Assembly: GCA_963771175.1 (NCBI GenBank)
Contig: CAVYSY010000045.1
Span: 64,001-128,000 of the forward strand
Direction of reading: 5' to 3'
Source of the DNA: an uncultured delta proteobacterium
GTDB taxonomy: Bacteria > Myxococcota > Myxococcia > Myxococcales > Myxococcaceae
DNA: 64,000 bases
Below the pieces are notes generated by a model. It was not told the origin of the DNA and searched no databases. It worked only from the letters and a program-made list of their open reading frames with translations. A program made the translations under genes and the position numbers. Numbering within the stretch: the first letter of the stretch is position 1; every line of letters begins with the position of its first letter. This document shows, one piece after another, positions 7,470 to 60,682 of the stretch.

Positions 7470-7517
7470 GACGTCCTCAGTGCGAGAGGGAGCTGCGTGA
7501 CGTCGGGCGTGGGCTCG

Positions 7518-11218: not shown

Positions 11219-11261
11219 GGCGTGACGAGTCGGGACTCAGCGCTGTCGAGCCTTCAGGGAA

Positions 11262-17791: not shown

Positions 17792-20700
17792 GGGCTCTCC
17801 TCGTCGAGGGTGATGGCGTGCTCGCCGTTGGAGACCAGGATGCTGTGCGACGTCCGCGGGACGATCGTCTCCGCGTCCGAGGCCGTCGCTTCCGTGGAGG
17901 GGTCGACGAGGTGCTGCACGTGGAAGTCGGACACGTAGTCCACGTAGGAGCGCCGTTCCACGAAGTGCAGCAGCGTGGAGCGGTGGAGCGCCCCGCCGAA
18001 GACGATATCCCTGCTCGTGTCGAAGGCCCAGGGAGAGAGGAAGGCGTTGAGCTCCTGCTTCAGCCGGGACAGGCACAGCGCCGGGTCATTGCCGCGGGTG
18101 AACCGCACCCGGAAGGCGAGCCGGATGGGCTCGTACTGGGGGTTCCTCACCTGCAGTTGGACGAAGGGGCCCACCAGCGGCTGGAGGAACCGGGCCACCT
18201 CCGCGAGCGTGGCCTGGCTCGTGTAGGGCATGAAGGGGTTGTGCCCCTGGCGTCCCACGAGGTTGGGAATGGTGACCACCGTCACCGAGCCGGGGGCGAT
18301 CTCCCGATTCGAGCCCCCCTCCAGCCGCGAGTGGTTGAGGCACTTCACCTTGTAGAGGGAGGGGAAGGACTCCAGCACCAGCGCCTCGTAGTCACGGGGG
18401 GTGATGGCCCGGTTCTTGTGGCGCAGCCGCTCGCTGGTGCGCCGGGCGAAGGAGAGGGGGGCCTCGGGAGCGCGGCCACCGAAGGACGCGACGGGCTGCT
18501 CGAGCTTCTTGATGGCGGCCTGCCGCTGCTCCAGCTTGCGGATGGTACCAGCGGGGAGCACGGTGGTGAGGTGGGCGGAGTGGTGCTCGGGATGGAGCAG
18601 TGTGGCGGTGGCCGCCTGCGCGCGCAGGGCGATGAGGCGGCAGGCGGCGGCGCTCCGCGCGGGGGCGGAGGCTCGGAGCCAGAAGCGCCCGGCGGGCAGT
18701 CGGCCGCCAGCATCGGTGGCCGTGGACGGCAGCACGATGCGCACCAGCCCCGAGTGGACGAGTCCGTGCGTGCCATCCCCGAGTGCCTCGCCCCGGAGTG
18801 CGTGGAAGCGCTGGTCCGAGCCCAGGTAGCTCCAGCTCACCTCGGCGGCATCGAGCGTCGGATCTCCACTGCCTTCCTCCGCCTGGACGAGGAGGGTGAT
18901 CCGCTGCCGCGGCTGGGTGTTCTCCAGGCCGATGTAGAGCTCCCCTTCGTTCGGGTGGGACGGCAGCCAGGGGGTGTTCTCCCCGATGACCTCGCGCGTC
19001 TCCCCGAAGGGGTGGAGGTGGAAGAGGCGGTCCTCGGAGGAGGTCGTCGCCCCGGCCTGGAGCACGGCGCGGGCGCCGTAGGACAGAGTGAGGGCGGCGA
19101 GTGTCGGGGTGATGGGGGGATGGGGCAGGAGTGGCAGGTCCTTGGTGTCCTGCGCTCGGGCGATGGCCATGACGGCCGAGGCGTGCAGCCGGGGGAAGAC
19201 ACGGTGGCCGAAGCCCTGCTGGGGCGCGGTGAGGCGGACACGCACGGTGTCGATGGCACGCGTGGACAGCAGCGAAGCGGGCACATCGAAGGTTTTCGCG
19301 CTGAAGAGGGGGCCTCGGGTGATGCTCCCTGGCGTGGCACCGGGCACCGGACCGAGCCCCACTGCCAACTCGACCCGGAAGAGCTCCCGGGGATCCCGCG
19401 GGGCTGGCTTGGGCACCCTCCGCTTCTCCGCATCCTCCTTGGCGGTGAGTCCTCCTTGGCGGTGAGTTCCTCCTTGGCGGTGAGTTCCTCCTTGCGACCC
19501 TGGGCGGGAGGTTGCAGCACATACGCCTGGTAGATCTCCGCGAGGTCGAGGTCGGGAGACGGATCCAACCAGTCCAACTCGAGCTTGAGGGAGGTGAGCG
19601 CCTTGGCTTTCAGCTCGGCGCACCGCACGGAGAAGGCGGATCCGGGCAGGGGCTGGGGCCCGAAGGGGGTGAAGGGTTTGGTCGGATCGGCGCGGCCGGC
19701 ATCCGTCTCCACCTGGATCTGTCGCGCGCCCTGGACGTGCGCATCGAGCTGGATCTGGGAGAGGGTGAACGCGGAGAGCGCGCCGTAGGTCTGGCCGCTA
19801 GATGCATTCTGCACCAGGAAGACGCGGCACACCGGCCACTCCGTATCCAGGGCACCGCCGTGGAGGTCGCGCTGATAGCGGATGATGGGCGGGTCCTCGG
19901 GGGCGAGCCGCAGGCCCAGCCGCAGGATGTTGCCGTCCAGCTTCACCGTGCGGGCTTCCAGGCCGTGCCAGCCCTTGGTGATGGAGAGCTCGACGCGGAA
20001 GAGGCGGGTCAGGTTGAGCGACTGGAGCGCATCCAGGGTTCCCGAGGGGGCATTCAGGGTCAGCGCGAGGGTGATGTCGCGCGTGCCCTCGGCCAGCAGC
20101 AGGAGGGGGGAGGCGAGCGCGAAGCCGATGGCGGCGGCGGAGTGGGTGTCGGAGCCGAGGGCGGGCCACCCGGGCTGTTCCGGGGGCAGCGGCTCGCCGA
20201 GGCCGTCGGCGGAGTTCGCGACGGGGCTGGCCGTGAGCACGCCCCGTGCGGTCTTGTGCACGGCGAGCAGCGGGCCCACCCGGGTGTGGTCCAGGCGCAG
20301 GTCGTCATCCAGCGCGTACCGGAGGAACTGTCCCTGGGCATCCTTCCCGCCGAGCAGGACGGTGCCCGCGGGGAGCACATGGGACTCCAGGTGGCGGGCC
20401 AGCTCGAAGGTGAGGAAGACGTGGTCGGCCTCGGACTGGCGAGGCCGGAGCCGCAGCACCTCCTGGTAGTAGTACTCGAGGTGCCGGGCGGTGAGTCCGT
20501 TCAGGCTGTCGAGCGCGTAGCGGAAGAGGTGGAGGAACGTCAGCAGGAGGGCCATGGGCGGCTCGTGCCGGGGCCAGTCCGTGAGCGTCTTCTCCAGGTC
20601 CGCCGCCGCCACGTCCGCCATCCGCGCGAGCGTGCGCGGGAAGGACTCCATCAGCGGGCGCAGGTACTCCAGCGCTCGGGCCAGCTTCTCCACCTCGGGG

Positions 20701-41408: not shown

Positions 41409-41604
41409 TCGGAACCTCGGCGAGCAGGAGTGCCCGAGCGCCCGGGATGCGGCCGATCGAGCCGCCCCGGGCGTCATTACGCACTGAGCCATTTCCGCGC
41501 GAGTTCTCGGGGGACGAGACTCCGTGTAGGCGCGGGCAATACTGCGGGTGGCGGGCGCCGAGGTTATTGAAGTACTCCGCCTGCTTGGCGGATAAGGTGC
41601 CACC

Positions 41605-43155
41605 ATGCCAGGTCCGTTCATCGAGGACGCGCAGCTCGTTCATGCGCGAAAGCTGGCGGAGGACATCACTGAGCCCATCTTCGAGCTCATCCGCCGCCAC
41701 ACCACTGTCTCCGTCGAGCGCACCGTGTTGCGTTTCTTCGGCATCTCGGATGCTGGAGCCGGAGGCGTGCCGCTCGCCAATCTGATGGTCGATCGGCTCA
41801 AGGAAGCCCGAGTCCTCAACAAGGGGGCGGCGTACTGGTACGGCCGCGCCCTGCAGATGGGGGCCCGCAGTCCCCTGGAGGCCGTGGAGCGCCTGACCGT
41901 GCTGCCCATGGAGAAGCTGGGGCCCCTCTCGCCGGAGATGGAGCACAACCTCCGCGAGGAGGTTCGCGCCGAGGCCCACGCGGCCATGGAGGACTTCAAG
42001 TCCCGCATCGCCCAGCGTGACGCGCTGCGCAAGGAGCTGGGCAGTGCCCCGGCGCCGCACAAGTACGTCATCGTGGCCACGGGCAACATCTACGACGACG
42101 TGGATCAGGCTCGGGCCGCCGCGCAGGCCGGCGCGGACATCATCGCGGTCATCCGCTCCACGGCGCAGTCGCTGCTGGACTACGTGCCCCACGGCGCCAC
42201 CACCGAGGGCTACGGCGGCACCTACGCCACCCAGGAGAACTTCCGCATCATGCGCGAGGCCCTGGATGACGAGAGCCGCAAGCTCAAGCGCTACATCCAG
42301 CTCACCAACTACTCGTCGGGCCTGTGCATGGCGGAGATCGCCTTCGCCGCGGCCTACGAGCGGCTGGACATGCTGCTCAACGACGCGATGTACGGAATCC
42401 TCTTCCGCGACATCAACATGCGGCGCACGTTCATCGACCAGTACTTCAGCCGCCGCATCTGCGCCCAGGCCGGCATCATCATCAACACCGGCGAGGACAA
42501 CTACATCACCACCGCGGACGCCTACGACGCGGCGCACACGGTCATCGCCAGCCAGTTCATCAACGAGTCCTTCGCCAAGCGCGCGGGCCTCGAGGACTGG
42601 CAGCTCGGCCTGGGGCACTCGTACGAGATCGACCCGTACCGGGCGGACACGCTCCTGTTGGAGCTGTCGCAGGCCATGCTCGTGCGGCGGTGCTTCCCCG
42701 ACGCGCCGCTCAAGTACATGCCGCCCACCAAGCACAAGGAGACGGACATCTTCTTCAGCCACGCGTACGACGTGATGGCGGACCTGGTGGCCATCTGGAC
42801 GCGGCAGGGCATCCAGCTCCTGGGGATGATGACCGAGGCCATGCACACGCCACTGCTGGCGGACCGGTACGTGGCGCTCAAGGCGGCCAGCTACATCTAC
42901 CGGGCGGCGGCGGGCATCGACGAGGAGTTCACCGTGCGCGAGGACGGGAAGATCGCCAACCGCGCGCGCGAGGTGTTCGCCAAGGCGATGGAGCTGCTGG
43001 AGGAGTGCCAGAAGGACGGCATGGTGGCGGCCATCGGCCGGGGCCACTTCGGCGACGTCAAGCGCGCCGAGACGGGTGGCAAGGGGCTGGATGGGGTCTT
43101 CGAGAAGGCGCCCGACTATTTCAACCCGTTCCAAGAGCTGCTGGAGGCGCCGTGA
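41605..43155 (+). CDS. kamD: Lysine 5,6-aminomutase alpha subunit
   Basis: TTVSVERTV, VATGNIY, GYGGTYATQENFR, NYSSGLCM, KYMPPTK. Confidence 0.92.
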   Translation: MPGPFIEDAQLVHARKLAEDITEPIFELIRRHTTVSVERTVLRFFGISDAGAGGVPLANLMVDRLKEARVLNKGAAYWYGRALQMGARSPLEAVERLTVLPMEKLGPLSPEMEHNLREEVRAEAHAAMEDFKSRIAQRDALRKELGSAPAPHKYVIVATGNIYDDVDQARAAAQAGADIIAVIRSTAQSLLDYVPHGATTEGYGGTYATQENFRIMREALDDESRKLKRYIQLTNYSSGLCMAEIAFAAAYERLDMLLNDAMYGILFRDINMRRTFIDQYFSRRICAQAGIIINTGEDNYITTADAYDAAHTVIASQFINESFAKRAGLEDWQLGLGHSYEIDPYRADTLLLELSQAMLVRRCFPDAPLKYMPPTKHKETDIFFSHAYDVMADLVAIWTRQGIQLLGMMTEAMHTPLLADRYVALKAASYIYRAAAGIDEEFTVREDGKIANRAREVFAKAMELLEECQKDGMVAAIGRGHFGDVKRAETGGKGLDGVFEKAPDYFNPFQELLEAP

Positions 43156-43643
43156 TGCTCGGCTCGTTGCTGGTGATGGTGCTCGCCGCCGGAGAGCCGG
43201 CGGAGACGCTGACGAAGTACGAGGTGAAGACGCTCGCGCTGCAGGTGCCCTCCGAGTGGAAGCAGTCCGAGGCGGATGGCACCCAGCGCTTCGACGACCC
43301 GTCCGGGGACGCGTACCTGTTGCTGGACGTGGGCTCGGTGCAGACGTCGGGGATGAAGGCCCGGGTGTGCCTGGAGAAGATCCTCGCCGCCATGGGCAAA
43401 GAGGATTGGAAGAAGCTCAAGTTGGGCAAGGCTCCCGCGGCGCGGCGCGTGAACACGGACACCACTCCGGATGGCGCCGAGTCCGTGGAGACCGTGACGT
43501 ACGTGGGCTGTGACGGGAAGACCACCTGGTCGCTCGTCTTCCACATGGACGTGAAGAAGAAGGACCGCTTCGAGGCGCTCGTGGCGAAGGTGGCCAACAG
43601 CGTCGCGTACTCGAAACCGTCCGTGAGCAAGAAGGGGAAGTAG
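43155..43643 (+). CDS. Hypothetical exported protein
   Basis: TGATG coupling to kamD; hydrophobic N-terminus MLGSLLVMVLAA. Confidence 0.65.
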   Translation: MLGSLLVMVLAAGEPAETLTKYEVKTLALQVPSEWKQSEADGTQRFDDPSGDAYLLLDVGSVQTSGMKARVCLEKILAAMGKEDWKKLKLGKAPAARRVNTDTTPDGAESVETVTYVGCDGKTTWSLVFHMDVKKKDRFEALVAKVANSVAYSKPSVSKKGK

Positions 43644-43648
43644 CCGCC

Positions 43649-44437
43649 ATGGCGACGAAGCCGACGAAGCAGATCATCCGCCCCTATGGCGACCGTCGTG
43701 ATGACGGCGTGGTGCAGCTCTCGTTCACGCTGCCGGTGCCGTTGTCGGAGAAGGCCAAGGAGGCCGCCGCCGTCTTCACCAAGAAGATGGGGTTCACCGA
43801 TGTGAAGGTGGCCGCCGCCGAGCGCGCCGCCGATACGTACACCTTCTTCATCGTGTACGCGCGCACCTCGATCTCGCTCGACTATGCGGAGATCGACGTG
43901 CCCGAGGTCGTGGTGAAGAAGCTGGGCTTCGATGACCTCAACGTGCTCATCAAGGACAAGGTGGGCCGGCGCATCGTGGTGTTCGGCGCCTGCACGGGCA
44001 CGGACACGCACACGGTGGGCATCGACGCCATCCTCAACATGAAGGGCTACGCGGGCGACTACGGTCTGGAGCGCTACCCCGGGTTCGAGGCCCACAACCT
44101 GGGCAGCCAGGTGCCCAACGAGGACCTCATCAAGAAGGCCCAGGCGCGCAACGCGGACGCCATCCTCGTGTCGCAGGTCGTCACCCAGCGTGACGTGCAC
44201 AAGGACAACTCGCGCCAGTTCATCGAGGCCGCCAAGGCCGCGGGCATCCACGGCAAGACGCTCCTGCTGCTGGGCGGGCCGCGCGTGGACCACAAGCTGG
44301 CGTTGGACCTGGGCTTCGACGCGGGCTTCGGCCCCGGCACCAAGCCCTCGGACGTGGCCAACTACATCGTGCACCAGGTCCTCCAGAAGGAAGGCAAGGA
44401 GGAGAAGAACATGCACTGGGAGGGGGAACCCAAGTGA
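43649..44437 (+). CDS. kamE: Lysine 5,6-aminomutase beta subunit (cobalamin-binding)
   Basis: [21 protein letters not shown] (DxHxxG), MKGYAG. Confidence 0.92.
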
Positions 44438-44829
44438 GTAACGTGAAGGCCGTCATCCGCCTGCGCATGAGCAGCCACGACGCGCACTACGGCGGCAACC
44501 TGGTGGACGGGGCCCGCATGCTGGGCCTGTTCGGCGACGTGGCCACCGAGCTGTGCATCCGCCTCGACGGGGACGAGGGCCTGTTCCGCGCCTATGACTC
44601 CGTGGAGTTCCTCGCGCCGGTGTACGCCGGGGACTTCATCGAGGCCGAGGGGGAGATCGTCCAGACGGGCAACACCTCGCGGAAGATGCGCTTCGAGGCG
44701 CGCAAGGTCATCCGCCCGCGTCCGGACGTGAACGACTCGGCGGCGGACGTGTTGCCGGAGCCGGTGGTGGTGTGTCGGGCTAGCGGCACCTGCGTGGTTC
44801 CCAAGGACAAACAGCGAGGCCAGCGATGA
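44434..44829 (+). CDS. kal: 3-aminobutyryl-CoA ammonia lyase (hotdog fold)
   Basis: [27 protein letters not shown]. Confidence 0.88.
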
Positions 44830-45665
44830 GCACTCCCATGGTCATTACCGCGGCGATGATCGGCGCGGAGACGACGCGCGAGCAGACGCCCTACCTGCCC
44901 ATCAGCGCGGAGGAGATCGCCGAGGACGCGGCGAAGTGCCGGGAGGCCGGTGCGGCGATGGTGCACCTGCACGTGCGCACGCCGGACGGCAAGCCGTCGC
45001 AGGACACGGAGCTGTTCCGGGCGGCCATCCGGGCCATCCGCAAGCGGACGGACATCCTCATCCAGGTGTCCACGGGTGGCGCGGTGGGGATGGGCGTGGA
45101 CGAGCGCTGCGGCGGGCTGCGGCTGACCGGCGAGGATCGGCCGGACATGGCCACGCTGACGACGGGCACGGTGAACTTCGGCGACGAGGTGTTCTGGAAC
45201 CCGCGCCCGCTGGTGAGGGACATCGCCCGGCGCATCAAGGCGCTGGGCCTCCGGCCGGAGTTCGAGTGCTTCGACGTGGGCATGGTCGACGAGGCTCGGG
45301 CGCTGGCGAAGGAGGGGGTGGCGGAGCTGCCGGGTCACTTCGACTTCGTGCTGGGCGTGCCGGGAGCGCTGACGGCTCGCGAGGACGCGCTGGACTTCAT
45401 GATCAAGTCCCTGCCCGAGGCGAGCACCTGGACGGTGGCGGGCGTGGGGCGGCACCAGTTGCCGTTCGTGGAGCTGGCGGCGGAGCGGGGCGGTAACGCG
45501 CGCGTGGGGCTCGAGGACAACATCTACGTGTCCAAGGGCGTGCTGGCGAAGGGCAACTGGGAGCTGGTGGCGGAGGCGGCGAAGCGGGCGAAGGCGAAGG
45601 GCCGCACCCTGGCCACCCCGCAGGAGGCCCGCAAGCTGCTGCGTCTGGACGTGCCCACCGCCTGA
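44826..45665 (+). CDS. kce: 3-keto-5-aminohexanoate cleavage enzyme
   Basis: ITAA..GAE, HLHVR, STGG, RVGLEDN. Confidence 0.9.
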
Positions 45666-47985: not shown

Positions 47986-48905
47986 TCACCGTCGCTCTTC
48001 GTCGACCTGGCCATTCGCGAGGATGACCCAGCGGTAGTCATCGTCGCAGGCTCGGCACGCCTTGAACCAGGAGCCCTCGGTGATGAGGGTGCGCTTGTGC
48101 TCCACCAGCCAGGCCCAGGTGTGGTCACGCACATGCCCGAGCCGTCCCTCTCCCGCGCACGTCGTTCACGCACGGCATCAGCTCTCCTTCCACCGTGATG
48201 AACGTGACAGCTCCGAAGATGCCGCATCCCTGGCAGCCATTCGCTGGTCGATGCGAAGTGACGACTCCCCCACGCGTGTGGAGGCGCCGGTAGAAGAAGT
48301 CGAAGCCGAGCTCCGTGGCCCAGTTTCTAACGGCATCCCGGCCGTGGGCGTTGTTGGGCGTCTCCACGAAGTTCACACGGACTCTCAGGTGCTCCGGACG
48401 GAGAGTCGCGGAGATGCTCGAGGTTCTCCCGGACTTGTTCGGGTTTCGCGCCGCGCGTGACGATGGGGGCGAGCTCCCGCGCATCCAGACCATGAACGCT
48501 CACCTGGAACTGCGCCAGTCCCGCGGCGATCAGCTTCCGCTGCCGGTCTGGCGTCAGACGGATGCCGTTGGTGATCGCACAAGGAGAGAAGCCCCGTGCC
48601 GAGAGCGCTTCGACGAAGGACTCCAATCGCGGGTGCAGGAGCGCGTCGCCGAGCCCGCTGAACATCACCACGGCGTTGTCGGGCAGGAACGCCAGGATCT
48701 CCTGGAAGGTGCTCTCCAACATCAATCCCTTCGGGCGCGTCATCTCCTCTCGGGGGCAGAACGAGCAGACGATGTTGCAGGCCGAGGCGAGCTCGATGTC
48801 GAACAAGGGGGCCTGCTCGAGCAGGGCAAGGTTTGCTGCCCGTCGCCGCTCCTCGGACCAGGCCTGCACGGTGGCGACGAGAGCATCGGTCCGCTCAGCG
48901 TCCAT
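47986..48905 (-). CDS. Radical SAM protein with SPASM/twitch-like C-terminus, ~3 frameshifts
   Basis: CNIVCSFC; later C..CGIF, MPCVND, CRACDD in successive frames; stop at 47986. Confidence 0.75.
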
Positions 48906-50030
48906 GGCGTCTTCCCGTGAGGTCGAACTGCCGCATCCGTCCACTCCATCGCACCGGCGAGACGACACCTGCCCCGTGCCGAGCCCTCCACGTGGGCGAC
49001 AGGAAGTTCTCGCGGTCATAGGGCACGGAGGCGTGTTCCTCGGACTTCTGGCAGTTCATTCCGCACCCGTCGCAGTGCCACTCCAACCGTCCTACGGAGA
49101 ATCCTCGCCGGATCCTCCGGTAGAGGGGGCCGTTCCAGATGGTGGTGAAGGGCTCGTTCAGGATGTTGCCCGCTGCGTCGCCTCCATGGGAGTGGCAGGC
49201 CAGCACGGCACCGTCGATGTCGATCCAGGTCTCGTGCCAGGGGAGGTGGCAGGCCGTGGCCTCCAGCGCGGCCGTTGCCGCCGGGGCTTCGGGCTCGGCG
49301 CATTCGAGGGCGATTCCCAGGCGTTCTCCTTCCCGCACGGCTTCTTCCAGCACGGGAGGCCACACGGAGAGGTCGTGCATCAGGGACTCGTCATCCAGCT
49401 CTTCCGTGAACGAGAAGAGGTGGTAGGCCTTCACGCGGTGGGCTCCGAGCTCCGCGGCGAGGCGCACCAACGCGGGCAGCTCCCGGTAGTTCGAGCGCAT
49501 GAGCGTCATCTGCAAGGAGATGGTCGGACGCGCGGGCGCATCGCGCAGGGCATCCACCAGTCGGCGGACATTGGCGCGGATGGCGTCGAAGCTCGCGCCA
49601 CGGCGGAGCCGTTCGAACGTCTCGCGGCTCGCGCCGTCGAAGGACACCTTCACATCTCGGGCGATGGGCTGCATCCAGGCGATGCGCTCGGGCGTGAGCA
49701 GCGTACCGTTGGTCGTGAGATCGAGCAGCACTCCATGGCGCTCCATTTCCCCACACAGCCTGGAGAAGAGCGGCCAGGTGAGCGGCTCGCCGAGGTTGGT
49801 CGGGTGGAGCTCCGTCAGGGTGGGGAACAGCTCGGCTACCACTCGCTCCAGCACTCGCTCGTCCATCCGCGGTTTCTTGCTCGCGCGCGGAATCTGGCAG
49901 ATGCGGGCAGTCGAGGTTGCAGCTATCGGTGGTCTGGAGGGTCAGCTTGACGGGTAGGGCGTCCAGCACCTCCGCGTGGGCCTGGTGGGCCTCGTCCCCG
50001 CGCCGCAGGTATGTCCATCATCTCGCGCAT
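48895..50030 (-). CDS. Radical SAM/SPASM protein, 2 apparent insertions near the 5' end
   Basis: CNLDCPHCQ restored by removing one base; GEPL, TTNGTLL, CHLPW, LACH, CDGCGMNC. Confidence 0.8.
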
Positions 50031-50056
50031 GGAGCGGGTGCCGGGAGTCCAGCTTC

Positions 50057-51713
50057 TCAGGGGCGATATAGGGATCCATCGATGACTACTCCATCCAGTC
50101 CGAGCCGGTGGGCACAGGGAAGCGCATCCTCTGGCCGATGCACGATAGGCTCTCCCGGACCGTTGAAGGAGGTGTTGATGAGACCGGCGATTCCGTGCCG
50201 CCGCCACAGCCGCGTGAGCAGGGCGCACAGGAACGTCTGATCGTGATCATCCTCCCGGATGACCTGGGCCCGAAGCGAGCCGTCCGCGTGGAGGACGCCC
50301 GCGAACCGTGCTTCCCACTCAGGCCGCAGTCGCCATGCGCCGAGCATGAACGGTGCGAGGTGACTTCGCGCCACCTCTCCGCCGAAGGCTTGTTCGGCGA
50401 CTTCCCGCAGGAGCACGGGGGCCACTGGCCGATACCACTCCCGCCTCTTGAGGGTCTCACTGGACACGTCGCCGGAGCTCGGCGCGATCCGGCCGGGCCA
50501 GGATGCTCCGATGTCCGAGGGCGCGCGGGCCGATCTCGGCCGCACCATTGCAAACGCCGATGACCCTGCCCTCGGCCAGCAAGTCCGCGATCGTGTCCAC
50601 CTCCTGGAGTGGCGTGTCACCCGGACCGGTCCTCGTGCGCCCGAGGAAGGGCCCGTGGAGTGCCACCTCACCGTGTTCGAGGAACTCGACCCAGGCCGCC
50701 GCTCCCAGTGCGAGCCCGGTGTCATTGGTGCAGGGCGGAACGTGCACCGTCTGGAATGCGCCCGAGGCCTCGAGGCGGGCGTTGGTGGGGATGTTCAGCG
50801 CCGCGCCCCCCGCGTAGTAGATGACGGGCGCCAGTGCGGCGCTGCCAGTCGAGGAGCTCCGCGCTGACACTCTCCTCGAAGTGGTGTTGGAGCGTCGCGC
50901 AGAGATCTCGACAGAGTTCCTCATGTGGCTCGAAGGTGGACCACCGGGTGCCGAACCGCCGGTTGACGAGCTCGAGCAGCCTCGCCGGGTCCTCGGGCCC
51001 TTCGAGGAAGAAGCGGTGCTCCTCCAGCCAGGAGAGGAGTGAAGGGGCGGGGGTGCCGTGGCCCGCGTAGCCCATCAGCTTTCCCGGAATGGTCAGGTGC
51101 TCGTGGCTCCCGAACCCGAGGATGGCCCTGACCAGGGGGTTGACGTTGAAGTTGTTCACTGGGGCCTTCAGCCGGTCCCAGGAGGACTCCAGCAGCCGCG
51201 CCTCGCGTCCATCCCACCACCAGAAGGAGCATGCGGAATCCGAGGCGCCGCCGTCGATGTGCGCCAGCAGGCTCTGGGGCTCGAAGCGCCCGACGAAGGG
51301 GAGCAGGCTGGCGACATGGGCGAATTCATGACAGAGCGCCCAACCCGTGGCGGTGCGTGGCCGGAGACCGTCTGGATACCACCGCACCCTGGCTGGCACC
51401 GGCCGTGCGTCGATGCCGACCGCCGCAGTGGGTTCGATTCGGAGGTTGCCATCCGCCGTCTGGAAGCCATCGCCGACGAACGCGTTGACCGAGACGAAGC
51501 GGACCGGCTCGTCCCCGATGCCCACCGCCTCGAGCAACTCGTGCAGATACTGGTCGAGCCGGTTGTCGTGCTTGCGCCGGGTCCACCGTTCCAGCGACAG
51601 CACCGTCTCCACGCGCCCTTCCCGGGCATCACCGCGAGGCCGTGGTCATGGGTGTAGGTGGGTGCCGTGCCGTGCGAGGTATCTCGAATCCCATAGAGCC
51701 CGACAGTCACCAT
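50057..51713 (-). CDS. NodU/TobZ-like carbamoyltransferase, ~3 frameshifts
   Basis: [75 protein letters not shown]. Confidence 0.85.
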
Positions 51714-52351
51714 GGCTCCACCGCCCTGTGCTCTCCGCGCCAGATACAGCGCAGGCCGCCGCCGAGCCGCTGGATGGCGAATCCATCGAGCGGCGCCAGC
51801 CAGGTTCCTGTGAATTGCTCGCCGGAGAGCGGAGCGATGGCGGGCATCAGCACCGAGTCATGGGTGATGCACACGCCACTGCCCCTTCTCGCGTCGAGGC
51901 GATCGAGCGCCGCTGACAGCAGCAACCGGGTTCCCTCTCCAGCCGCGCGGACGAAGGGCCAGCGCCGCCCGGAGAGCTGCGCGCGGACGACCCCTTCGGT
52001 GCCCAGCTCGGCGAACAGGCGCGCCCCCTCGGTCCGGTCCATCACCCAGGGGCCAGGCGAGCCCAGCCGGGTGTCCACCTCCACGCTGCTCGTTCCCGGC
52101 CGCTCCGCGAGCGCCTCCGCCGTGCGCCGGCACCGGAGGAAGGGGCTGATGGCGGCCCAGGAGATTCGCGTGCGAAGCCTGTGTCCGAGCTCCAGGGCGG
52201 CTTCGTGGCCAGCGGGAGTGAGGTCGACATCGGCGTAGGGCTCCTCGGGAGGGAGGGGGGCCCGCTCCGCGTGGCGCAGGAACAAGGTGAAGGGGGCGGA
52301 GGGGTCCAGGGCATTGAGCGTACGGACGAGTCCCTCGGGCAGGAGGGTCAT
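51707..52351 (-). CDS. Histidine phosphatase family protein
   Basis: LFLRHAER, LT..G, SPFLRCRRTA, ITHDS. Confidence 0.85.
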   Translation of the reverse strand: MTLLPEGLVRTLNALDPSAPFTLFLRHAERAPLPPEEPYADVDLTPAGHEAALELGHRLRTRISWAAISPFLRCRRTAEALAERPGTSSVEVDTRLGSPGPWVMDRTEGARLFAELGTEGVVRAQLSGRRWPFVRAAGEGTRLLLSAALDRLDARRGSGVCITHDSVLMPAIAPLSGEQFTGTWLAPLDGFAIQRLGGGLRCIWRGEHRAVEPW

Positions 52352-53282
52352 GGCTCATTCCCCAGGTGCTCGAGGCCCCAGAAGGTGAGCAGCTCGATGC
52401 GCTTGTCGAGCGGGAGCGGCTCGATGGGGCCACAGGCCCGTGCGGTCATGACCACCTTGGCGTAGTGCTCCAGGCCCTCGACACGGAGGAAGGCGTTCCA
52501 GATGGAGTCGGCCCAGGCAACCACTCCGTGGCGCGGAAGGATCGCCCAGTTGTAGTGCTCCATGTACGGGCGCAGCACGGCGGGGCTCTGCTCCGAGGAG
52601 ATCCGGGCGTACTCCGTGGTGGGAATGGGCGCGACGCTCACGTAGGTCTTGTGCAGGTCGACGCCCGCCAGCGAGGCCGCCACGGCATAGGGCGAGTGGA
52701 CGTGGATGACGCAGCGGCAGTCCGGACGGGAGCGGTGCAGCTCGACGTGCAGGCGGTACTCGGACGTCGGACGGCGGTCGCCTCGGAGCAGGGTTCCATC
52801 CGGGTGGGTGACGACGAACTCCTCGGGGCGGATGAATCCGTTGTGCGAGCCGCTCGGTGTCATCAGCAGGGTGCCATCATCGAGCCGGTAGGAGAGGTTG
52901 CCGTCGATGGAGACGTTGTACCCGCGCTCATAGATGAGAATGCGCGACGCGGGTGAGCTCCTGGCGGATGCGCCACTCGGGGTCGGCCTGGTCTGGATGG
53001 AAGAGGCCTTCACGGTCGAGCTGCCCGTGTGTGCCCTCCACCGTGCAGGACGAGGCGTGACCATCGACGAATGGGAGGATCCACTGAAATCGGAGCCCAT
53101 GGGTGGGAAGCTCGTGACCGTGGGGATCGATGAGGACGGCGCTTCCATCGAACCGGTGGGCGACGGCGAACCCCTCCCGGAAGGCGCTGACCGCACGGTA
53201 GCGGGATGCATAGACGGGCTGTCCGGTCCCATCGACATGGGCCCAGGTCCCATCCGGCATCCGCGCGGGATGCGGTTCTGAC

Positions 53283-53290
<8 letters not shown>
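52348..53290 (-). CDS. WG-repeat-like N-terminus fused to class II aldolase/adducin domain, one frameshift at ~52937
   Basis: SAFREGFAVA and LPFVDGHA repeats; removing one base gives QELTRVAHLIYERG, then GNLS, TPSG, PTSEYRLH, HVHSPY, HG. Confidence 0.75.
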
Positions 53291-54835
<1,545 letters not shown>

Positions 54836-54836
<1 letters not shown>

Positions 54837-57214
54837 CACGTCACCTCCACCGGCTTGCGCATGTTGCAGCCGAGGCAGAGCGTGCGGTTCCGGTAGGTCG
54901 CGACGAGCCGCTGGTAGGCCTCGCCGTTCCAGATCTCCATGAAGCCCGTCGTCGTGCAGGTTGCCGAACTCGCCGAGCGTGCGCCGCTGCGCGTCCGGCG
55001 CGCAGCAGGGATCGAAGCGGCCCTCCGCGCTCACCCAGGCCTCCTGCCCGAGGAACGGGCACGGACCGCCGGGCGCGAGATCCTCCTGTCGCGTCGTCGT
55101 CGAGCAGGAAGATGTTCTCGAGCAGGACGGGCTCGCCGTTCGGCAGCGGCCCGCTCGGCGGCGGCCGCGCGCGCCTCGAGCACGGCCTCGTTCCAGCGCC
55201 GGATCGCACTCGGGCTCCGCCGCATCGAGAGCGGTTCTGATCTCGTCGAAGTGGGCCCAGAGGTGGTGGCCCTTCACGCGGTCGACGCCGAGGTCGACCG
55301 CGAGCCGCACGATGTCGGCGAGCTCGGCGACGTTGCGTCTCGAGGAACGTGAGCTGGAACGTGACGCGGCAGCGGTTGCCGCCGCTCGCGCGCGTGCGCG
55401 TCGCGCACCGCGATGAACGTGCGCACGTTCTCGAGCACCTTCTCCCAGCGCGCGCCGAGCATGATCGCCTCGTGCGTCGCCTTCGTCGCGCCGTTCCACG
55501 AGATCTTCACGTCCGAGGTGACCGGCACGATCCGCTCGGCCCACGCGCGCGCGCCGAGCCGCGGGAAGGTGCCGTTGGTGGTGAGGTTGAGCTTCACGCC
55601 GTGCGTCGCGCAGAGGTCGAGGATCTCCTCGAAGTGCTCGTAGAGCAGCGGCTCGCCCATCGTCGACGGGATGATCTCCCGCAGCCCGTGCGCGGCGCAG
55701 CCTCCGCGACGACCCGCGCGAATCAGCTCGATCGGCATCACCCGGCGCGGCCTCCCGCGGCCTTGCGCGCGGCTCTGCAGCGGGCTGTGCGGCGAGTGCT
55801 CCTCGCACATGACGCAGTGCAGGTTGCAGGTGTCCGGGTTGGTGTCGAACGTGATCCGCCACGGGCCCGGCGCGGCGTGGCACGCGCGCGGTGTCACGCC
55901 GCGCGAGGACCTGCTCGTAGAGCGCCTCGACGTCGCGCGACGTGGTCGCCGATGTCGGGGATGTCGCCGCTCGCGCTGAAGCAGGTAGCCGCGCGCGCCC
56001 GAGGCGCTCGCGCCAGCGCCGGGTCGTCGACGAGCCGCTGCATCTGCTCGGCGAGCGCCGTCGGGATCGCGGTGCTCGAAGAGCAGCCCGTTGACCTCGT
56101 GGTGCACGTACTCGGCCATGCCGCCCGACGTCGGCGGTGATGACCGGGACGCGGGCCTGCTGCGCCTCGTGGATGACGAGCGGCGAGTTCTCGACCCAGA
56201 CCGACGGCACGACGATCGCGTCGACGCGGTCGAAGACGTCGCGGACGATCTCCTGGTTGCGGTACTCGGGCAGCCACTCGACGCGCTCGGCCAGCGTCCC
56301 CCGGCAGGCGCCGCGGCGATCGCCTTGAGCGCCTCGGTGTCCTGGCCGCGCGGCCGCCCCCAGATGCGCAGCCGCGGCGTCGCCGCGCAGCCGCGCCGAA
56401 GGCGTCGAGAGGTGGTGGATGCCCTTCGCCGGGATGTGCGTGCCGATGTAGCCGAACGTGAATGGCTCGCCCGGCGCGCGCTGCGCGGCCGCGCAGCCGC
56501 GTCGCGGTCGAAGCCGTAGTCGAGGTAGACGCAGCTTGCGCTCGGGCAGCCCGAAGTCGTCGCGATAGCGGTCGATGGAGGTACCGCGACGGGCGCGATG
56601 AAGAGGTCGACGAGCTCGGCCATCTCGCGCACGTGCGCGCATCCGGCGCGCGACCCAGTCGCGTCCAGTAGGCGACGTCCGCCTCGCGCTCGTCGGGCGC
56701 GCCGCGAGAAGTAGCGGGCGTAGCAGCGCTCGGCGCACTTGCGGTCCTCCTGCCCGTCGCACGCGGCCCAGAGGTCGTTCGGGTCCTCCGGGTGCATCTG
56801 CATGAACTGGCCGCGCGGGCACATCAGCCAGTAGTCGTGCAGCGTGAAGACGATCGGGAGCTCGCGGGTCGCGGCCTCGCCGAGCAGCGAGGTCGAGAGG
56901 TGGTTGAGGTGGCCGACGTGGACGACGTCGGGCGCGAACGCGATCGAGCACCTCCGCGAAGCGCTGATCGACGCCGACGTGCCGGTAGCGATCGCGGCTC
57001 CGCGGCATGTTGACGACGTGCAGCGTGACGCGCGGGTCGTCGCGTCGCGCTCCGCGCGCAGCGCGGTAGTCAGGCGCGAACGGGATCCTCCTCGCGCGTG
57101 AAGACGTGCACCTCGTGCCGCTCGGCGAGCGCCGTGGCAGAGGGTCTGCGTGTAGACCTCGGAGCCCGCGTTGTACCGCATCGGGTAGCCGTGGATGACC
57201 TGCAGGATTTTCAT
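54836..57214 (-). CDS. GT4-like glycosyltransferase fused to radical SAM/SPASM domain, multiply frameshifted
   Basis: MKILQVIHGYPMRYNAGSEVY, TLHDYWLMCPRGQ, YIGTHIPAKG, PSVWVENSPLVIHEA; then CNLHCVMC, GEPL, TTNG, CPFLG, PCC, CLGC. Confidence 0.78.
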
Positions 57215-57356
57215 GCGCCCTCTCGCATGAAGCTCATCACAGATCATCAAAGCGCAGCATCCATCCCGGCGAGGTATTTCCTGAACAGCGCGGTCCGACA
57301 GTCCTTGACAGCAGGAGGGACGGACCAGCACTCCGATGAGCTCTCCTGCCCCGATT

Positions 57357-59037
57357 TCAGAAGGGGGCCGGCTGCTCGAAGGAGACGAGCTGTCCCGTCT
57401 CCGGATGGCGGAACGAGAGTGACTCCGCGTGCAGGTGCAGGCGGCGGTCCTCGTGCCCGTAGAGGCGGTCCCCGACGATGGGCGCGCCGAGGCCGAGCGG
57501 GTGCGCCGCGTGGACGCGCAGTTGGTGGGTCCTCCCGGTGAGGGGGAAGAAGGCCACGCGGGTGCGCTCCCCACTTCGCTCGAGGACCTCCCACCGGGTG
57601 ACCGCGGCCTTTCCGTGCACGGGGTCGTGAATCTGCCGGGGCCGGTCGTGGAGGTCGACGCGCATCGGGAAGTCGATCGTTCCTCGCTCGCCCTGGACGT
57701 GTCCCTCGAGCCAGGCCACGTAGCGCTTCTGGACCTCCCGGTGGACGAACTGCCGCTGCAGGGCCGCGTGCGTCCGCGAGTCGAGCGCCGCGACGAGCAG
57801 GCCCGAGGTGTCCAGGTCGAGCCGATGCACGAGGAGCGGGCCCGTCGCGTGCGGGTACCGGGCGCGCAGCCGGGCGAGCACCGAGTCCGTCACCGAGGCG
57901 TCCTTTCCGGGCACGGAGAGCAGGCCGCAGGGCTTGTCGACCACGACGACCCACGCGTCCTCGAAGACGACGGACAGCTCCGAGGCCACGACGGCCGGTG
58001 GCGAGAAGGCTCTCGGGGAGGTGACTCGCAGGCCCTCCAGCATGAACGGAAGGAGGGGGCCGCACTTGTCCCGGCAGGCGGCGTAGAAGGCGCCGGTGAC
58101 GCGTCCTCCCGAGAGCGGCGGAGCGCCCCACCAGAACTCGGCGAGCGCCAGCGGACGCAAGCCGTGCGCGAAGGCATGGGCGAGGAGCTTCGGGGCCGCG
58201 CAGTCAGCGGCGCCCGAGGGAGGCTCTCCGGGTGCGTACAGGGCCCGCAGCGGACGCTGCTCGCCCCGCGCATTGGGGACTTCGTAGGTGTCGTGGAGCC
58301 GCTTCATGAGCGCGCGACAGACGATCCGCCGCAGGCGCTCGAGGGCCCGAAGACGCCGTTCGAGCCGCGCTCGCTTCGGCACGAGCGCCCGTCGTTCCTC
58401 CTCCTGCGCCGCATCCAATCGGCGCTGCTCCGCCTTGTCGCCCCGGCTCTCCTGGTCGAGCGCATGGAGGGCCTCGCGCTTCTCGGCCTCCGCGAGCGCA
58501 TCCGACGCCGTGAGCTCCGCCCGCCGCGCGTGGCGCCGCCGCCGCTTCTCTTCATGCCGGGCGCGCAGCGCCGCTCGTTCCGCGGTGTGGCGTGCCTGCT
58601 GCGCTTCGTGGGCGGCCCGGAGCGTGACGAGCTCCGACGAGGTCCGGAGCTCCTCGGCGCGGGCGAGCAGCGCCTTCACCACGGCCTCGCCCGCGGGCTC
58701 CACCTGGGCTCGTGCCTCGCGGTCGAAGAGGGGCGGGACGAAGCCCGGGACGTCCCAGCGGCCCGCGAGCATGCCGGAGAAGGACCGGAGGAACCCGAGG
58801 CGTCCGTCTGGCTGCTGCACGACCAGCACGCCGAACATCTTGCCGCCCTCCGGGCCGTCGAGCGTCGCGCTCGGAATCCCCGGGGCGACGAAGCCCGGCA
58901 CGGAGCTCCGCCTGCATCACCTCCGCGGCCTGGCGGGCCAGTTCGTGAGGACCGAGCTCGTCGAAGGGGCTCGGGAAGGCGTCGGCGACATCGTCAGAGG
59001 CCGGCCGCGGCTCGAAGGGTGTGACCCAGGTCTCCAC
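57357..59037 (-). CDS. RluA-family pseudouridine synthase (long form), frameshift at ~58905
   Basis: GKMFGVLVV, CAAPKLL, DKPCGLLSVPG, HRLDLDTSG, TGRTHQLRVH. Confidence 0.9.
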
Positions 59038-59320
59038 GGCCCTCCGGTAGCACGAAACGGCGAGAAACGGTGCCACCATCCAGGATTCTAGCCGTAGCGG
59101 TGCCAATCCAGGCGCAAATGTCGAGAACTCAATGTCGGATGACCCGACTCGTGGGCGGGGTTTTCATCGGTGAATTCGGCAGCGGCCATCAAGGAGCCCA
59201 CGAAGGCTTGTTCGCGCCCACGAGGTACAGCACCTTGTCGTCAGAATTGAAGGAGAACTGACCCGCTCTGTCCGAAAGGCTGGAGATCCTGGCATGTCGA
59301 ATCTCTCCGTTCGTGCAGTT

Positions 59321-59992
59321 TTACGAATCACTTGCGGCATTCCCGGAACTCGATGTCGCTTCCGTCGACGTCTCCGAGGAACAAAGCCATATTGAATTCT
59401 CCCAGTATTTGCTGGCCAATTGCGGGATCGCCTCCGTGGATTTGATGAGGTAGTCTCTTTGGTGTGCCCCTGCTGGTCCCGATTGCGAAATATGTGCGAG
59501 GATCCCCCCTTTCCGCTCGTTGGACGGATGATCATGCCCAAGCAGCCAGCAAATCCTCCGGTATAGAGATTCGTGGCCCCATTTAGGGATGCCAATATGC
59601 TTCTCAGATACGAAGAAGGTGTTGGACATGTGCGGCGCCGAAGCACTATCGGAGACAAACTCGATTTTTACCCTTCCGTCTCCCGCCAGTGTCATCGTCT
59701 TCAATTTTTTCTTGAGGCGGTCTGTTTGGAAGCGTTCGCGTGCTGCTTTCACGCTGGGAAACATGGGACAATCACCACTAACATGCGGCGCGATCATGGC
59801 GCCGAAAATCCAACATGAAGGGATCTTGCCGAAGGAAGCCATACTTCACGTTGGCGGTCATCAGGAAGACGCCCAGGAACTTGTGCTCGCGAGGTGTGAG
59901 CACAACCCCACCTCGACGCAGCCACTTGCTGGCGCATCGATGTCCAAGGCCTCTCCCTCTTCGCTGTGCATGTATACAACTCGTACCGTCAT
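59321..59992 (-). CDS. Low-GC orphan protein, apparently frameshifted
   Basis: GGGAGA RBS before ATG 59992; long ORF 59321..59842; visibly AT-richer than flanks. Confidence 0.4.
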
Positions 59993-60073
59993 GACATATC
60001 TCCCGATGTTGTCGGCTCGAATGGCGCGGATGTGAGGTGCTGACGATTTGAGTCGTCTGACCCCCTGCCTGGC

Positions 60074-60682
60074 TCACGCCGGGGGCAGAGAGGCCACCAG
60101 CTCCTCCAGGGCCTCGTGCCCACGTCGGAAGACGGGCCAGCCGTCCCCCACCAGCACCGCGTCGATGCGCGACCGTGAGAGCAGCCCACGCACCGAAGCA
60201 CGCGCCCTCGCGGCGTCCTTCAGCTTCGCGTCCGGCAGGAGGTTGAGCCGACCCCCCAGGTGGCCGCGGACGAGGTCGCCCGTCACCAACGTGGTGTCCT
60301 CGAGGAGGAGGGCCAGCTCGCCGGGCGTCTTGGAGCCGTGCAGCTCCAACGCCACGAGCCCGGGGACGAGCACCTCGCCATCCGCGAGCCAGCGGTCGCA
60401 CCGCAGGGGGAAGGAGTCCGCCTCGGCGCGAGGGCCGGCGACCTTCGCGCCGAAGTCGGCGACCAGCTCACGCGTGGCGCGGAGGTGCTCCGAGTTGGTC
60501 ACCACCACCCAGGCCACCCCGCCGAGCGAGCGCAGGCGCGCGGCCTCGTGCGCGGACAGCGGGAGCGGATCGATGACCACATTGCCCTCGGGGCGTACCC
60601 AGAGGACGCTGTGGAAGTCCAGGTTGCGCGCCTCGTCGAAGCGGGACCAGCCGTAGAGCGATGGGCGGTGCAGGGCTTTCAT
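60074..60682 (-). CDS. MBL-fold hydrolase-like protein
   Basis: VIDP, VVTNSEHLR, GSKTPGE, VTGDL, VGDG. Confidence 0.75.
   Translation of the reverse strand: MKALHRPSLYGWSRFDEARNLDFHSVLWVRPEGNVVIDPLPLSAHEAARLRSLGGVAWVVVTNSEHLRATRELVADFGAKVAGPRAEADSFPLRCDRWLADGEVLVPGLVALELHGSKTPGELALLLEDTTLVTGDLVRGHLGGRLNLLPDAKLKDAARARASVRGLLSRSRIDAVLVGDGWPVFRRGHEALEELVASLPPA

Follow-up and report, generated by a model that had tools for sequence, protein, structure and literature searches.

The stretch of DNA analysed here, called the window throughout, comprises 64,000 nucleotides of contig CAVYSY010000045.1 (positions 64,001 to 128,000; assembly GCA_963771175.1) from an uncultured member of the Myxococcaceae. 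The element in question is a block of seven genes on its minus strand, where stop-to-stop reading and the third-position G+C plot revealed a coding signal running from 57214 to 47986 with frequent changes of frame. The window has a G+C content of ~70% and therefore abounds in spurious open reading frames (ORFs). The gene junctions were checked by direct translation. Seven co-oriented, overlapping genes, g1 to g7, were recognised (Table 1), and the block at 47986–57214 is one operon. The proteins combine a glycosyltransferase of the GT4 family, radical S-adenosylmethionine (SAM) enzymes, a kinase, an aldolase, a phosphatase and a carbamoyltransferase with repeats of the WG type. Lengths of intact genes were taken from locus L001, which lies in an Archangium metagenome-assembled genome (MAG) and is the nearest relative.

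The ATG of g1 at 57214 is preceded by a GAGAGGG motif, and g1 meets g2 at ~54836. The stop codon of g2 overlaps the start of g3 at 53283–53290, an ATGA overlap joins g3 to g4 at 52348–52351, and the overlaps of g4 with g5 and of g6 with g7 span 51707–51713 and 48895–48905, respectively; the stop codon of g7 occupies 47986–47988. Pfam and direct translation bore out the seven-gene operon and the domains described in the first-pass annotation, bar one junction. The 26-bp gap that had been placed at 50031–50056, between g5 and g6, is probably not real, as the start chosen there belongs to a frame created by the frameshifts at 50023 and 50011; by homology, the start codon of g6 is the ATG at 50079 and falls within the end of g5. 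The reported absence of an exporter and a precursor-peptide gene from the block also holds. The spacer in front of g1 likely carries the promoter of the operon.

Table 1. Genes of the operon and the spacer upstream of it (positions in the window).
Feature	Assignment	Position	Strand	Basis	Length when intact
g1	GT4 + Radical_SAM + SPASM fusion	54836..57214	-	Pfam, window pieces and L001	782 aa (intact orthologue)
g2	WG_beta_rep + Pkinase (Hanks-type)	53283..54836	-	Pfam, window and L001	514 aa in L001
g3	short WG-type repeats + Aldolase_II (FucA-like class II)	52348..53290	-	Pfam	315 aa in L001
g4	histidine phosphatase branch 1, His_Phos_1	51707..52351	-	Pfam	214 aa, intact
g5	TobZ/NodU-type carbamoyltransferase, Carbam_trans_N/C	50057..51713	-	Pfam	551 aa in L001
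g6	Radical_SAM + SPASM	48895..50079	-	Pfam	~390 aa in L001
g7	third Radical_SAM, weak SPASM/short twitch-like tail	47986..48905	-	Pfam	314 aa in L001
Spacer	142 bases between the RluA-type pseudouridine-synthase gene and g1	57215..57356	-	sequence read	

As written in the window, only g4 lies in one frame (84% identity to L001, no indel), and the remaining six genes are broken. The window copy of g1 carries ~60 small indels; after projection on the L001 frame it shows 85% amino acid identity and no premature stop. In g2 the WG part (~54100–54836) is broken by indels while the kinase part (53283 to ~54100) is in a single frame and matches Pkinase with 56 bits. A one-base insertion at 52940 splits g3 into its WG-type part (52941–53290) and its aldolase part (52348–52938). 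The carbamoyltransferase g5 is spread over four frames, with changes at 51626, 50821 and 50463 and a +1/−1 pair at 50633/50624. The radical SAM protein g6 is a paralogue of the C-terminal half of g1 (32% identity), and in the window it has lost the third cysteine of its CX3CX2C motif through a frameshift at 49900.

Relatives were obtained from a scan of one genome per species with the clean aldolase part as query. Of the 52 stretches matched, six encode a relative: L001, L002 in a Myxococcaceae MAG, L003–L005 in three MAGs labelled Pseudomonadota or 'proteobacterium', and L006 in a Polyangia MAG. All seven genes of L001 are intact and overlapping. Lack of synteny in other genomes had been named in the first-pass annotation as a point that would tell against it; by tblastn, the seven genes follow the same order in six of six loci at 45–95% amino acid identity (the contig of L004 ends inside g1). 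An all-against-all comparison of flanking ORFs revealed a sole recurring coding-strand gene, a short-chain dehydrogenase/reductase (SDR) of the NAD-dependent epimerase/dehydratase type, which lies directly upstream of g1 in four of the six loci. In L002 and L006 the gene stands on its own; in L003 and L005 it runs into g1 as a single frame of 1105 and 1111 aa, respectively. No SDR gene was found upstream of g1 in L001 or in the window, where an RluA-type gene (57357–58901) takes this place. No transporter, regulator, nonribosomal peptide or polyketide synthase (NRPS/PKS) or conserved small ORF is common to the flanks of the six loci; these flanks and those of the window hold unrelated, housekeeping-type genes, and the DNA alignment between the window and L001 by blastn is limited to the cassette itself. 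Since the gene order is kept and the flanks are unrelated, the cassette is a self-contained module placed at different genomic sites.

The frame breaks deserve separate treatment. Blastn joins window positions 57275–47997 to L001 positions 5706–14936 in one alignment with 86.3% identity and 96 gap openings, which comprise 69 insertions in the window versus 27 deletions; 88 of the 96 are one base long, and 81 fall within 54148–57215 (~3.1 kb), a stretch that covers g1 and the WG-coding portion of g2. Among the single-base insertions, 10 of 63 equal a neighbouring base, where about half would be expected for random bases of such composition. The insertion pattern in 54148–57215 (and in 47997–54147) is that of neither natural slippage nor the homopolymer errors usual in sequencing. 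When the bases of the window are read on the L001 frames, no premature stop appears in six genes and a single stop lies in an over-long 5′ extension of g6. The projected genes share 80–92% amino acid identity with L001, synonymous changes equal or outnumber non-synonymous ones in all genes except g2 (100 vs 102), and 51–71% of the mismatches occupy third codon positions. Elsewhere in the window, in the neighbouring genes as well as beyond them, the ORFs are long and unbroken. Because the frames are clean and purifying selection is visible once the indels are set aside, the frame breaks are most likely local errors of sequence or assembly and not decay, in line with an earlier suspicion to which the clean frames and preserved constraint lend substance.

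The opposite account, a truly decayed and dead copy in the window whatever the cassette does elsewhere, draws on the 96 indels against the nearest relative, the six of seven genes out of frame and the intact state of the neighbouring genes. Natural decay of bacterial genes is deletion-biased and slippage-driven, and real decay with ~60 frameshifts in one gene would be expected to bring nonsense codons, relaxed constraint and a deletion bias. Instead, six genes contain no nonsense codon after removal of the indels, constraint is kept, insertions exceed deletions (69 vs 27) and homopolymers are avoided. Moreover, the substitution divergence is similar in indel-rich genes (84–86% identity) and indel-poor genes (87–91%). 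We therefore regard decay as unlikely.

A counterpart that already has a name was found in mobile elements of endosymbionts. In tblastn searches with g1, near-full matches were obtained in two of five matching phage records, both of Wolbachia prophage WO, and in five plasmid records, two of Rickettsia and three of Arsenophonus, out of 112 that matched. One WO record and the five plasmids share 52–56% identity over 97–100% of g1, the second WO record covers 84% of it, and the other 107 plasmid records match only the GT4 half at 31–33% identity. The context in WO comprises a GlmU-like nucleotidyltransferase, an SDR epimerase, the GT4/radical SAM fusion, a WG protein with an O-methyltransferase, a PhyH dioxygenase, an ATP-binding cassette (ABC) exporter, two threonine-aldolase genes of the pyridoxal phosphate (PLP) type, a major facilitator superfamily (MFS) carrier of the GlpT type, a UDP-glucose dehydrogenase and an EamA permease. 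This set is the 'Undecim Cluster', WD0611–WD0621, whose functions are predicted from annotation only in the available part of its description (Bordenstein and Bordenstein 2022, PMC9203015). Expression of Undecim proteins was reported, and BLASTp matches of WD0612–WD0614 were listed in Haliangium, Chondromyces, Stigmatella, Desulfovibrio and others, in the accessible portion of an earlier study (Baldridge et al. 2015, PMC4701759). As these matches had already been listed there, the link of the core to myxobacteria is not new.

The likeness extends to a colinear core. The SDR (39–40%), the GT4/radical SAM fusion (52–58%) and the WG protein (43–48%) correspond to myxobacterial proteins, and the same core occurs in syntenic WD0612–WD0618 arrays on plasmids of both Rickettsia (pREIP, R. 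asiatica) and Arsenophonus. Within the window, g1 has 52% identity to UC3/WD0613 across 100% of the g1 sequence, and for the WG domain of g2 the figure is 48%; order and strand agree, and both systems have tightly packed, operon-like genes. The first-pass annotation could not match the block to a named pathway, a statement now superseded, as its core is homologous to and colinear with WD0612–WD0614 and with the plasmid arrays of Rickettsia and Arsenophonus. The two systems nevertheless differ. WD0612 lies directly upstream of the fusion gene, as does the SDR of L002, L003, L005 and L006, whereas the window and L001 are devoid of it. WD0614 joins WG to an O-methyltransferase, whereas the window joins WG to Pkinase, and no O-methyltransferase homologue was found in the window or L001–L006 at E<=1e-3. 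The dioxygenase, exporter, threonine aldolases, GlpT-type carrier, UDP-glucose dehydrogenase, permease and GlmU-like gene are all absent from the window block. Conversely, the WG-linked class II aldolase, the histidine phosphatase, the carbamoyltransferase and the two further radical SAM enzymes belong to the cassette only, and g3–g7 have no homologue in the endosymbiont loci L007–L009. The cassette of the window is chromosomal in a free-living bacterium, while the Undecim core is carried by prophage and plasmids. Judged by homology and gene order, the cassette is thus best described as a myxobacterial variant of a widespread, uncharacterised cassette with a core of SDR, GT4/radical SAM fusion and WG protein. 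The aminoglycoside antibiotic (AGAB) cluster of Rickettsia buchneri (chromosomal RAGE-A) was also considered; the available parts of its descriptions (PMC9111745, PMC6300072) do not show it to be the same as the plasmid homologues of WD0612–WD0618, and the two are not equated here. Literature searches on the domain combination together with myxobacteria returned nothing on this cassette, nor did they yield an account of the variant with seven genes, of the protist fusions or of the exchange of WG partners (see below).

The WG repeats are the most telling part of the system and not an incidental one. With residues 1–245 of g2 as query, the best 120 clusters are 63–100% identical within the WG domain and differ in the partner behind it: a hand count from the Pfam listing gives an O-methyltransferase in 102, Pkinase in 12, the P-loop kinase AAA_33 in 4 and His_Phos_1 in 2. 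In L003 and L004, WG is joined to the P-loop kinase, and in L002 a long WG domain is fused directly to the aldolase, without a kinase. The AlphaFold 2 model of the WG domain reaches a mean confidence (pLDDT) of 96.6, and its best Foldseek matches are BamB and designed beta-propellers at template modelling (TM) scores of 0.45–0.55. An alignment of 47 WG sequences contains 23 invariant columns, many of them polar. The domain is carried by the tailoring enzymes and not by the bacterial core enzyme, which fits a propeller that would bring tailoring enzymes to the core enzyme or its product.

The g1 family itself is broad. A search of 1.84 billion representatives returned 1280 g1 homologues at E<=1e-30. 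The best 120 clusters at 90% identity share 74–100% identity over 98–100% of the query and carry generic names only; their sources are Sorangium, Polyangium, Myxococcaceae, MAGs of Myxococcota and a single Gammaproteobacteria MAG. The ESM Atlas added only the proteins' own clusters, generic GT4 and aldolase clusters, and one viral cluster at 0.90, which the phage search explains as Wolbachia WO.

Further members are giant fusions. P0129 of the choanoflagellate Stephanoeca diplocostata (2280 aa) contains a weak His_Phos_1 match, a carbamoyltransferase (38% to g5), GT4-radical SAM/SPASM and WG (34% to g2). P0136 of Chromera velia (2458 aa) contains WG, an O-methyltransferase, a weak nucleotidyltransferase match, a GalK-like GHMP kinase and GT4-radical SAM, and P0126 (2277 aa) has the same domain order. 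P0275 comprises the nucleotidyltransferase, GHMP kinase and GT4-radical SAM parts, and P0154 and P0190 comprise WG, O-methyltransferase and GT4. These fusions tie g1, the WG domain of g2, g4 and g5 into one process. The sugar kinase and nucleotidyltransferase in them point to a putative supply of nucleoside diphosphate (NDP)-sugar that would take the place of the bacterial SDR epimerase.

The variants can also be compared step by step. Seven loci with the carbamoyltransferase (L001–L006 and the window) are without the O-methyltransferase, three endosymbiont loci with the O-methyltransferase are without the carbamoyltransferase, and the fusion proteins obey the same either-or rule. Because the two enzymes never co-occur in these ten loci, a comparison biased by the retrieval of L001–L006 with the aldolase as query, we propose carbamoyl and O-methyl groups as alternative caps for one hydroxyl, which the distribution suggests. 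Each variant has an aldolase: a zinc enzyme of the dihydroxyacetone phosphate (DHAP) type together with a phosphatase here, and a PLP enzyme of the glycine type beside a dioxygenase in the endosymbionts. This suggests that an aldol step extends or cleaves a sugar carbonyl, made here by the radical SAM enzymes. Three unrelated folds (Hanks, P-loop and GHMP) serve for the kinase step, and this speaks for a role in metabolism and not in signalling.

Among the individual enzymes, the carbamoyltransferase has Kae1-like N-terminal and YrdC-like C-terminal domains (Carbam_trans_C 161 bits, Carbam_trans_N 58 bits, both above cut-off), and its PDB matches are TobZ (2e-40), NovN (residues 18–546) and GdmN; the NodU equivalog model scores 131 bits versus the 1000 needed. 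For g3, the Aldolase_II profile matches with E=7e-39 in the window and E=7e-41 in L001 (profile positions 1–182 of 183). The PDB matches comprise the unnamed aldolases 6vop/6voq and L-fuculose-phosphate aldolases at 1e-19 to 1e-12, and the nearest NCBIfam models are OtnC (107 bits vs a cut-off of 250), MtnB and FucA. Judged by eye, g3 contains residue strings reminiscent of the FucA motifs (zinc histidine triad, catalytic glutamate and phosphate-binding Ser/Thr). Stand-alone aldolases without the WG part (P0484, P0494 and neighbours) share 54–73% identity with its aldolase domain. Such stand-alone g3-like aldolases were seen in other lineages, including a Methanolobus (archaeal) MAG. A reading of the kinase and class II aldolase as methionine salvage or a 5-deoxyribose shunt was rejected, as no isomerase is present, variants replace the kinase or do without it, and the aldolase is linked to the WG module.

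For g1, a profile of 38 homologues best matches the GT4 enzymes sucrose-phosphate synthase Tll1590 (4.6e-20), Alr3699, MshA, GlgM and BshA, and enzymes of the Tll1590, MshA, GlgM and BshA type glycosylate small, mostly phosphorylated acceptors. The CX3CX2C motif is present in g1, g6 and g7 of L001; its cysteines in g1, C456, C460 and C463, are invariant in the 38 homologues, as are C709, C727, C728, C770 and C773, in keeping with a Cys-rich auxiliary domain at the C-terminus. Four further cysteines, C131, C151, C159 and C163, are invariant (38 of 38) in an insertion of the GT4 N-terminal domain (L001 5768–8113; window ~56700–56830) and may form an extra metal or Fe-S site.

The GT4 enzyme could alternatively be a glycan-tailoring one, in which case the substrate of the fusion would be an oligosaccharide, a polysaccharide or a glycoconjugate of the envelope, WG would bind the polymer, and the kinase, methyltransferase or carbamoyltransferase would cap its sugars. 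The whole GT4 domain is 31–33% identical to stand-alone GT4 genes on Sinorhizobium/Ensifer megaplasmids, which sit among GT2, GT4, methyltransferase and type I secretion genes. The propeller fold of WG and the interchangeable capping enzymes would suit such a role, as would the UDP-glucose dehydrogenase, ABC exporter, and MFS and EamA carriers that the Undecim variant adds. A precedent is WbdD, whose kinase and methyltransferase activities cap the end of the E. coli O9a antigen, a polymannan. It resembles the cassette in having a protein-kinase fold or methyltransferase on an extra docking domain beside GT4, versions of which alternate between cassette variants; the myxobacterial cassette differs in being without ABC exporter and polymer machinery, and its docking part is a propeller, versus the coiled coil of WbdD. 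The glycosyltransferase domain of WD0613 was also called ExpE7-like, in the accessible portion of the study that listed the myxobacterial matches (PMC4701759). However, no flippase, polymerase, priming transferase or exporter lies in or beside the cassette in the six loci and the window, the parts occur as single fusion proteins in protists, the aldolase, judged by eye, may retain the residues of sugar-phosphate aldolases, and the best solved-structure profile matches are the small-acceptor enzymes. We consider a polymeric acceptor rather doubtful, though worth keeping in mind, and prefer a small glycoside.

The radical SAM parts were compared with solved structures. The ten PDB matches of g7 comprise BtrN (2.4e-7), 8wm2 (AbmM), NifB, DesII and BlsE, so that sugar-modifying enzymes make up four of the five matched protein families (BtrN, AbmM, DesII and BlsE). 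Those of g6 are PqqE, SkfB and BlsE. The AlphaFold model of the g1 radical SAM domain (pLDDT 93.2) resembles SuiB, SkfB, DesII, BlsE, anSME, viperin, PqqE and MoaA at TM scores of 0.54–0.67; since peptide- and sugar-type enzymes match about equally in Foldseek, this fold is silent on the substrate class. A system of the kind that makes ribosomally synthesised peptides that are modified post-translationally (RiPPs), in which the SPASM enzymes, Hanks kinase, phosphatase and GT4 act on a protein recognised by the propeller, finds some encouragement here: SPASM enzymes are mostly peptide maturases, SuiB and SkfB are the top folds for g1, PqqE and SkfB are matched by g6, the kinase is of the protein-kinase type and propellers commonly bind proteins. 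It is, in our opinion, rather improbable. Neither the cassette, where genes overlap, nor its flanks, which share the SDR only, hold a conserved small ORF; in other variants the place of the kinase is empty or taken by a P-loop kinase or an O-methyltransferase; and the aldolase, TobZ-like enzyme, SDR epimerase and fused sugar kinase/nucleotidyltransferase indicate sugar chemistry.

Chemical anti-phage defence had been suggested in the first-pass annotation as a possible role. In such a conflict system, phage would be blocked by a product of the cassette, namely a nucleotide or sugar that is toxic or modified. The Pfam family GT4-conflict (PF20706) does match g1 with 48 bits (cut-off 26), and the core is carried by a prophage module and plasmids in endosymbionts; nevertheless, general GT4 families outscore it, 89 vs 48 bits. 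A comparison of the cassette proteins with PADLOC-DB 2.0 gave no specific match to a known defence system. Only the generic kinase models mad6 and PD-T4-6 and weak pVip matches on the three radical SAM parts were obtained, at 21–41 bits and at superfamily level only, and g3, g4 and g5 had no match. Moreover, the genes flanking the six loci and the window are unrelated housekeeping-type genes and not defence islands, homologues are fused genes in protists, and the very high conservation (74% or more across myxobacterial suborders) is unlike that of fast-evolving defence genes. The suggestion thus finds no support, and we regard this role as very improbable.

With a probability that we would put at roughly 45%, the operon is an intracellular pathway to a small, radical-tailored and O-carbamoylated (O-capped) glycoside. 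From the observed homology, synteny, fusions and domain swaps, we infer the following step order, acceptor and product. The GT4 half of g1 would move a sugar from an NDP-sugar to an acceptor, which is probably small and phosphorylated. Its radical SAM half, together with g6 and g7, would then oxidise or rearrange the sugar, and the FucA-like zinc aldolase g3 would make or break a C–C bond beside a ketol phosphate, with a DHAP-type unit. Phosphate would be added by the kinase g2 and removed by the histidine phosphatase g4. The TobZ-like g5 would O-carbamoylate a free hydroxyl, for which other variants would use the O-methyltransferase. In this scheme, the tailoring enzymes would reach the core enzyme, or its product, by way of the WG propeller as a portable module. 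The product probably stays inside the cell, because no exporter is present in any myxobacterial locus. The earlier proposal of a carbamoylated, radical-tailored glycoside therefore survives in its operon, domains and sugar-tailoring character, but not in the anti-phage role attached to it.

Two known groups of pathways offer a comparison. Aminoglycoside tailoring sets (TobZ, GT4 and BtrN) resemble the cassette in that g5 matches TobZ at 2e-40, the best solved relative of g7 is BtrN and a GT4 enzyme is present. They differ in that the similarities of the block are at superfamily level and none reaches an NCBIfam cut-off, and no 2-deoxy-scyllo-inosose synthase or aminotransferase domain was found in the window block or in the scanned flanks of the loci. 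GT4-plus-phosphatase routes are exemplified by sucrose-phosphate synthase and its phosphatase, MshA/MshA2, and glucosyl-3-phosphoglycerate synthase with the histidine phosphatase GpgP. The GT4 profile matches of g1 and the histidine phosphatase, which is present in the operon and weakly in the choanoflagellate fusion, recall these routes; the matches span the donor-binding half only, however, and the routes are without radical SAM, aldolase and carbamoyl steps.

Several points weigh against a small-glycoside pathway, or against the data on which it stands. None of the seven proteins reaches the cut-off of an NCBIfam model. The GT4 structure matches of g1 cover residues ~180–434, the donor-binding half, and the best stand-alone relatives of the whole GT4 domain (31–33%) reside in the polysaccharide-type cluster of Sinorhizobium, which favours a glycan acceptor. 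The g1 radical SAM fold matches the peptide maturases SuiB, SkfB and anSME alongside the sugar enzymes DesII and BlsE. The kinase g2 matches bacterial and eukaryotic protein kinases; it has a full Hanks-type C-lobe and resembles PknB-like protein kinases, not small-molecule kinases. Beta-propellers more usually bind proteins or polymers than small molecules. As the six loci were fetched with the aldolase as query, the frequency of the seven-gene variant is not readable from them. For the window copy, the avoidance of homopolymers by the insertions is unexplained under the error account, and an origin of the indels in error is not proven from the assembled sequence alone. None of the homologues comes with a known product, substrate or activity, and the Undecim functions are stated to be unknown in the available part of a 2025 preprint (bioRxiv 10.1101/2025.04.16.649125).

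We also entertain, quite tentatively, a wider version of the small-glycoside proposal. The WG propeller may be a portable recognition or docking module, the sugar-pathway counterpart of the RiPP recognition element, that would recruit an O-methyltransferase, Hanks kinase, P-loop kinase, histidine phosphatase or zinc aldolase to the GT4/radical SAM core. The cassette would then make a new class of radical-modified, O-capped glycoside common to myxobacteria, the prophage and plasmids of endosymbionts of insects and ticks, and protists (choanoflagellates and chromerids).

Some features of the surroundings are recorded here. The RluA-type pseudouridine synthase gene directly upstream of the operon (minus strand) encodes a ~320-residue charged N-terminal extension and is not beside the cassette in the six related loci; beyond it, 58900–60080 has a lower G+C content (~0.65) and no ORF with a coding signature. 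On the other side of the operon, a plus-strand run of the lysine-fermentation type (41596–45662) encodes the alpha subunit of D-lysine 5,6-aminomutase, the B12-binding beta subunit of an aminomutase and a beta-keto acid cleavage enzyme (BKACE), and is followed by genes for a Uma2 endonuclease, a PF10014 2-oxoglutarate-Fe dioxygenase and an SDR. These genes are not kept beside the cassette in other loci. In L006 only, genes for a B12-binding radical SAM protein and a thymidylate-kinase-like protein (17818–19958) are located downstream, ~3 kb from the cassette. Scans of the entire window with Rfam and for tRNA genes gave no match.

The available parts of two reports describe the Undecim Cluster as a conserved set of genes with high expression that Wolbachia, Rickettsia, Cardinium and further endosymbionts share by horizontal transfer, as duplicated in an obligate Wolbachia strain, and as residing in hosts that are not culturable or easily engineered (PMC9203015; bioRxiv 10.1101/2025.04.16.649125). 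The present cassette places its three-gene core in free-living, culturable and genetically tractable myxobacteria, within a compact and self-contained operon, and this makes the product and the GT4/radical SAM enzymology directly testable. The protist fusions and the swappable partners of WG provide independent constraints, drawn from sequence, on which steps belong together. If the product is indeed a new modified glycoside, a polar, non-PKS/NRPS class of metabolite would be added to the chemistry of myxobacteria.

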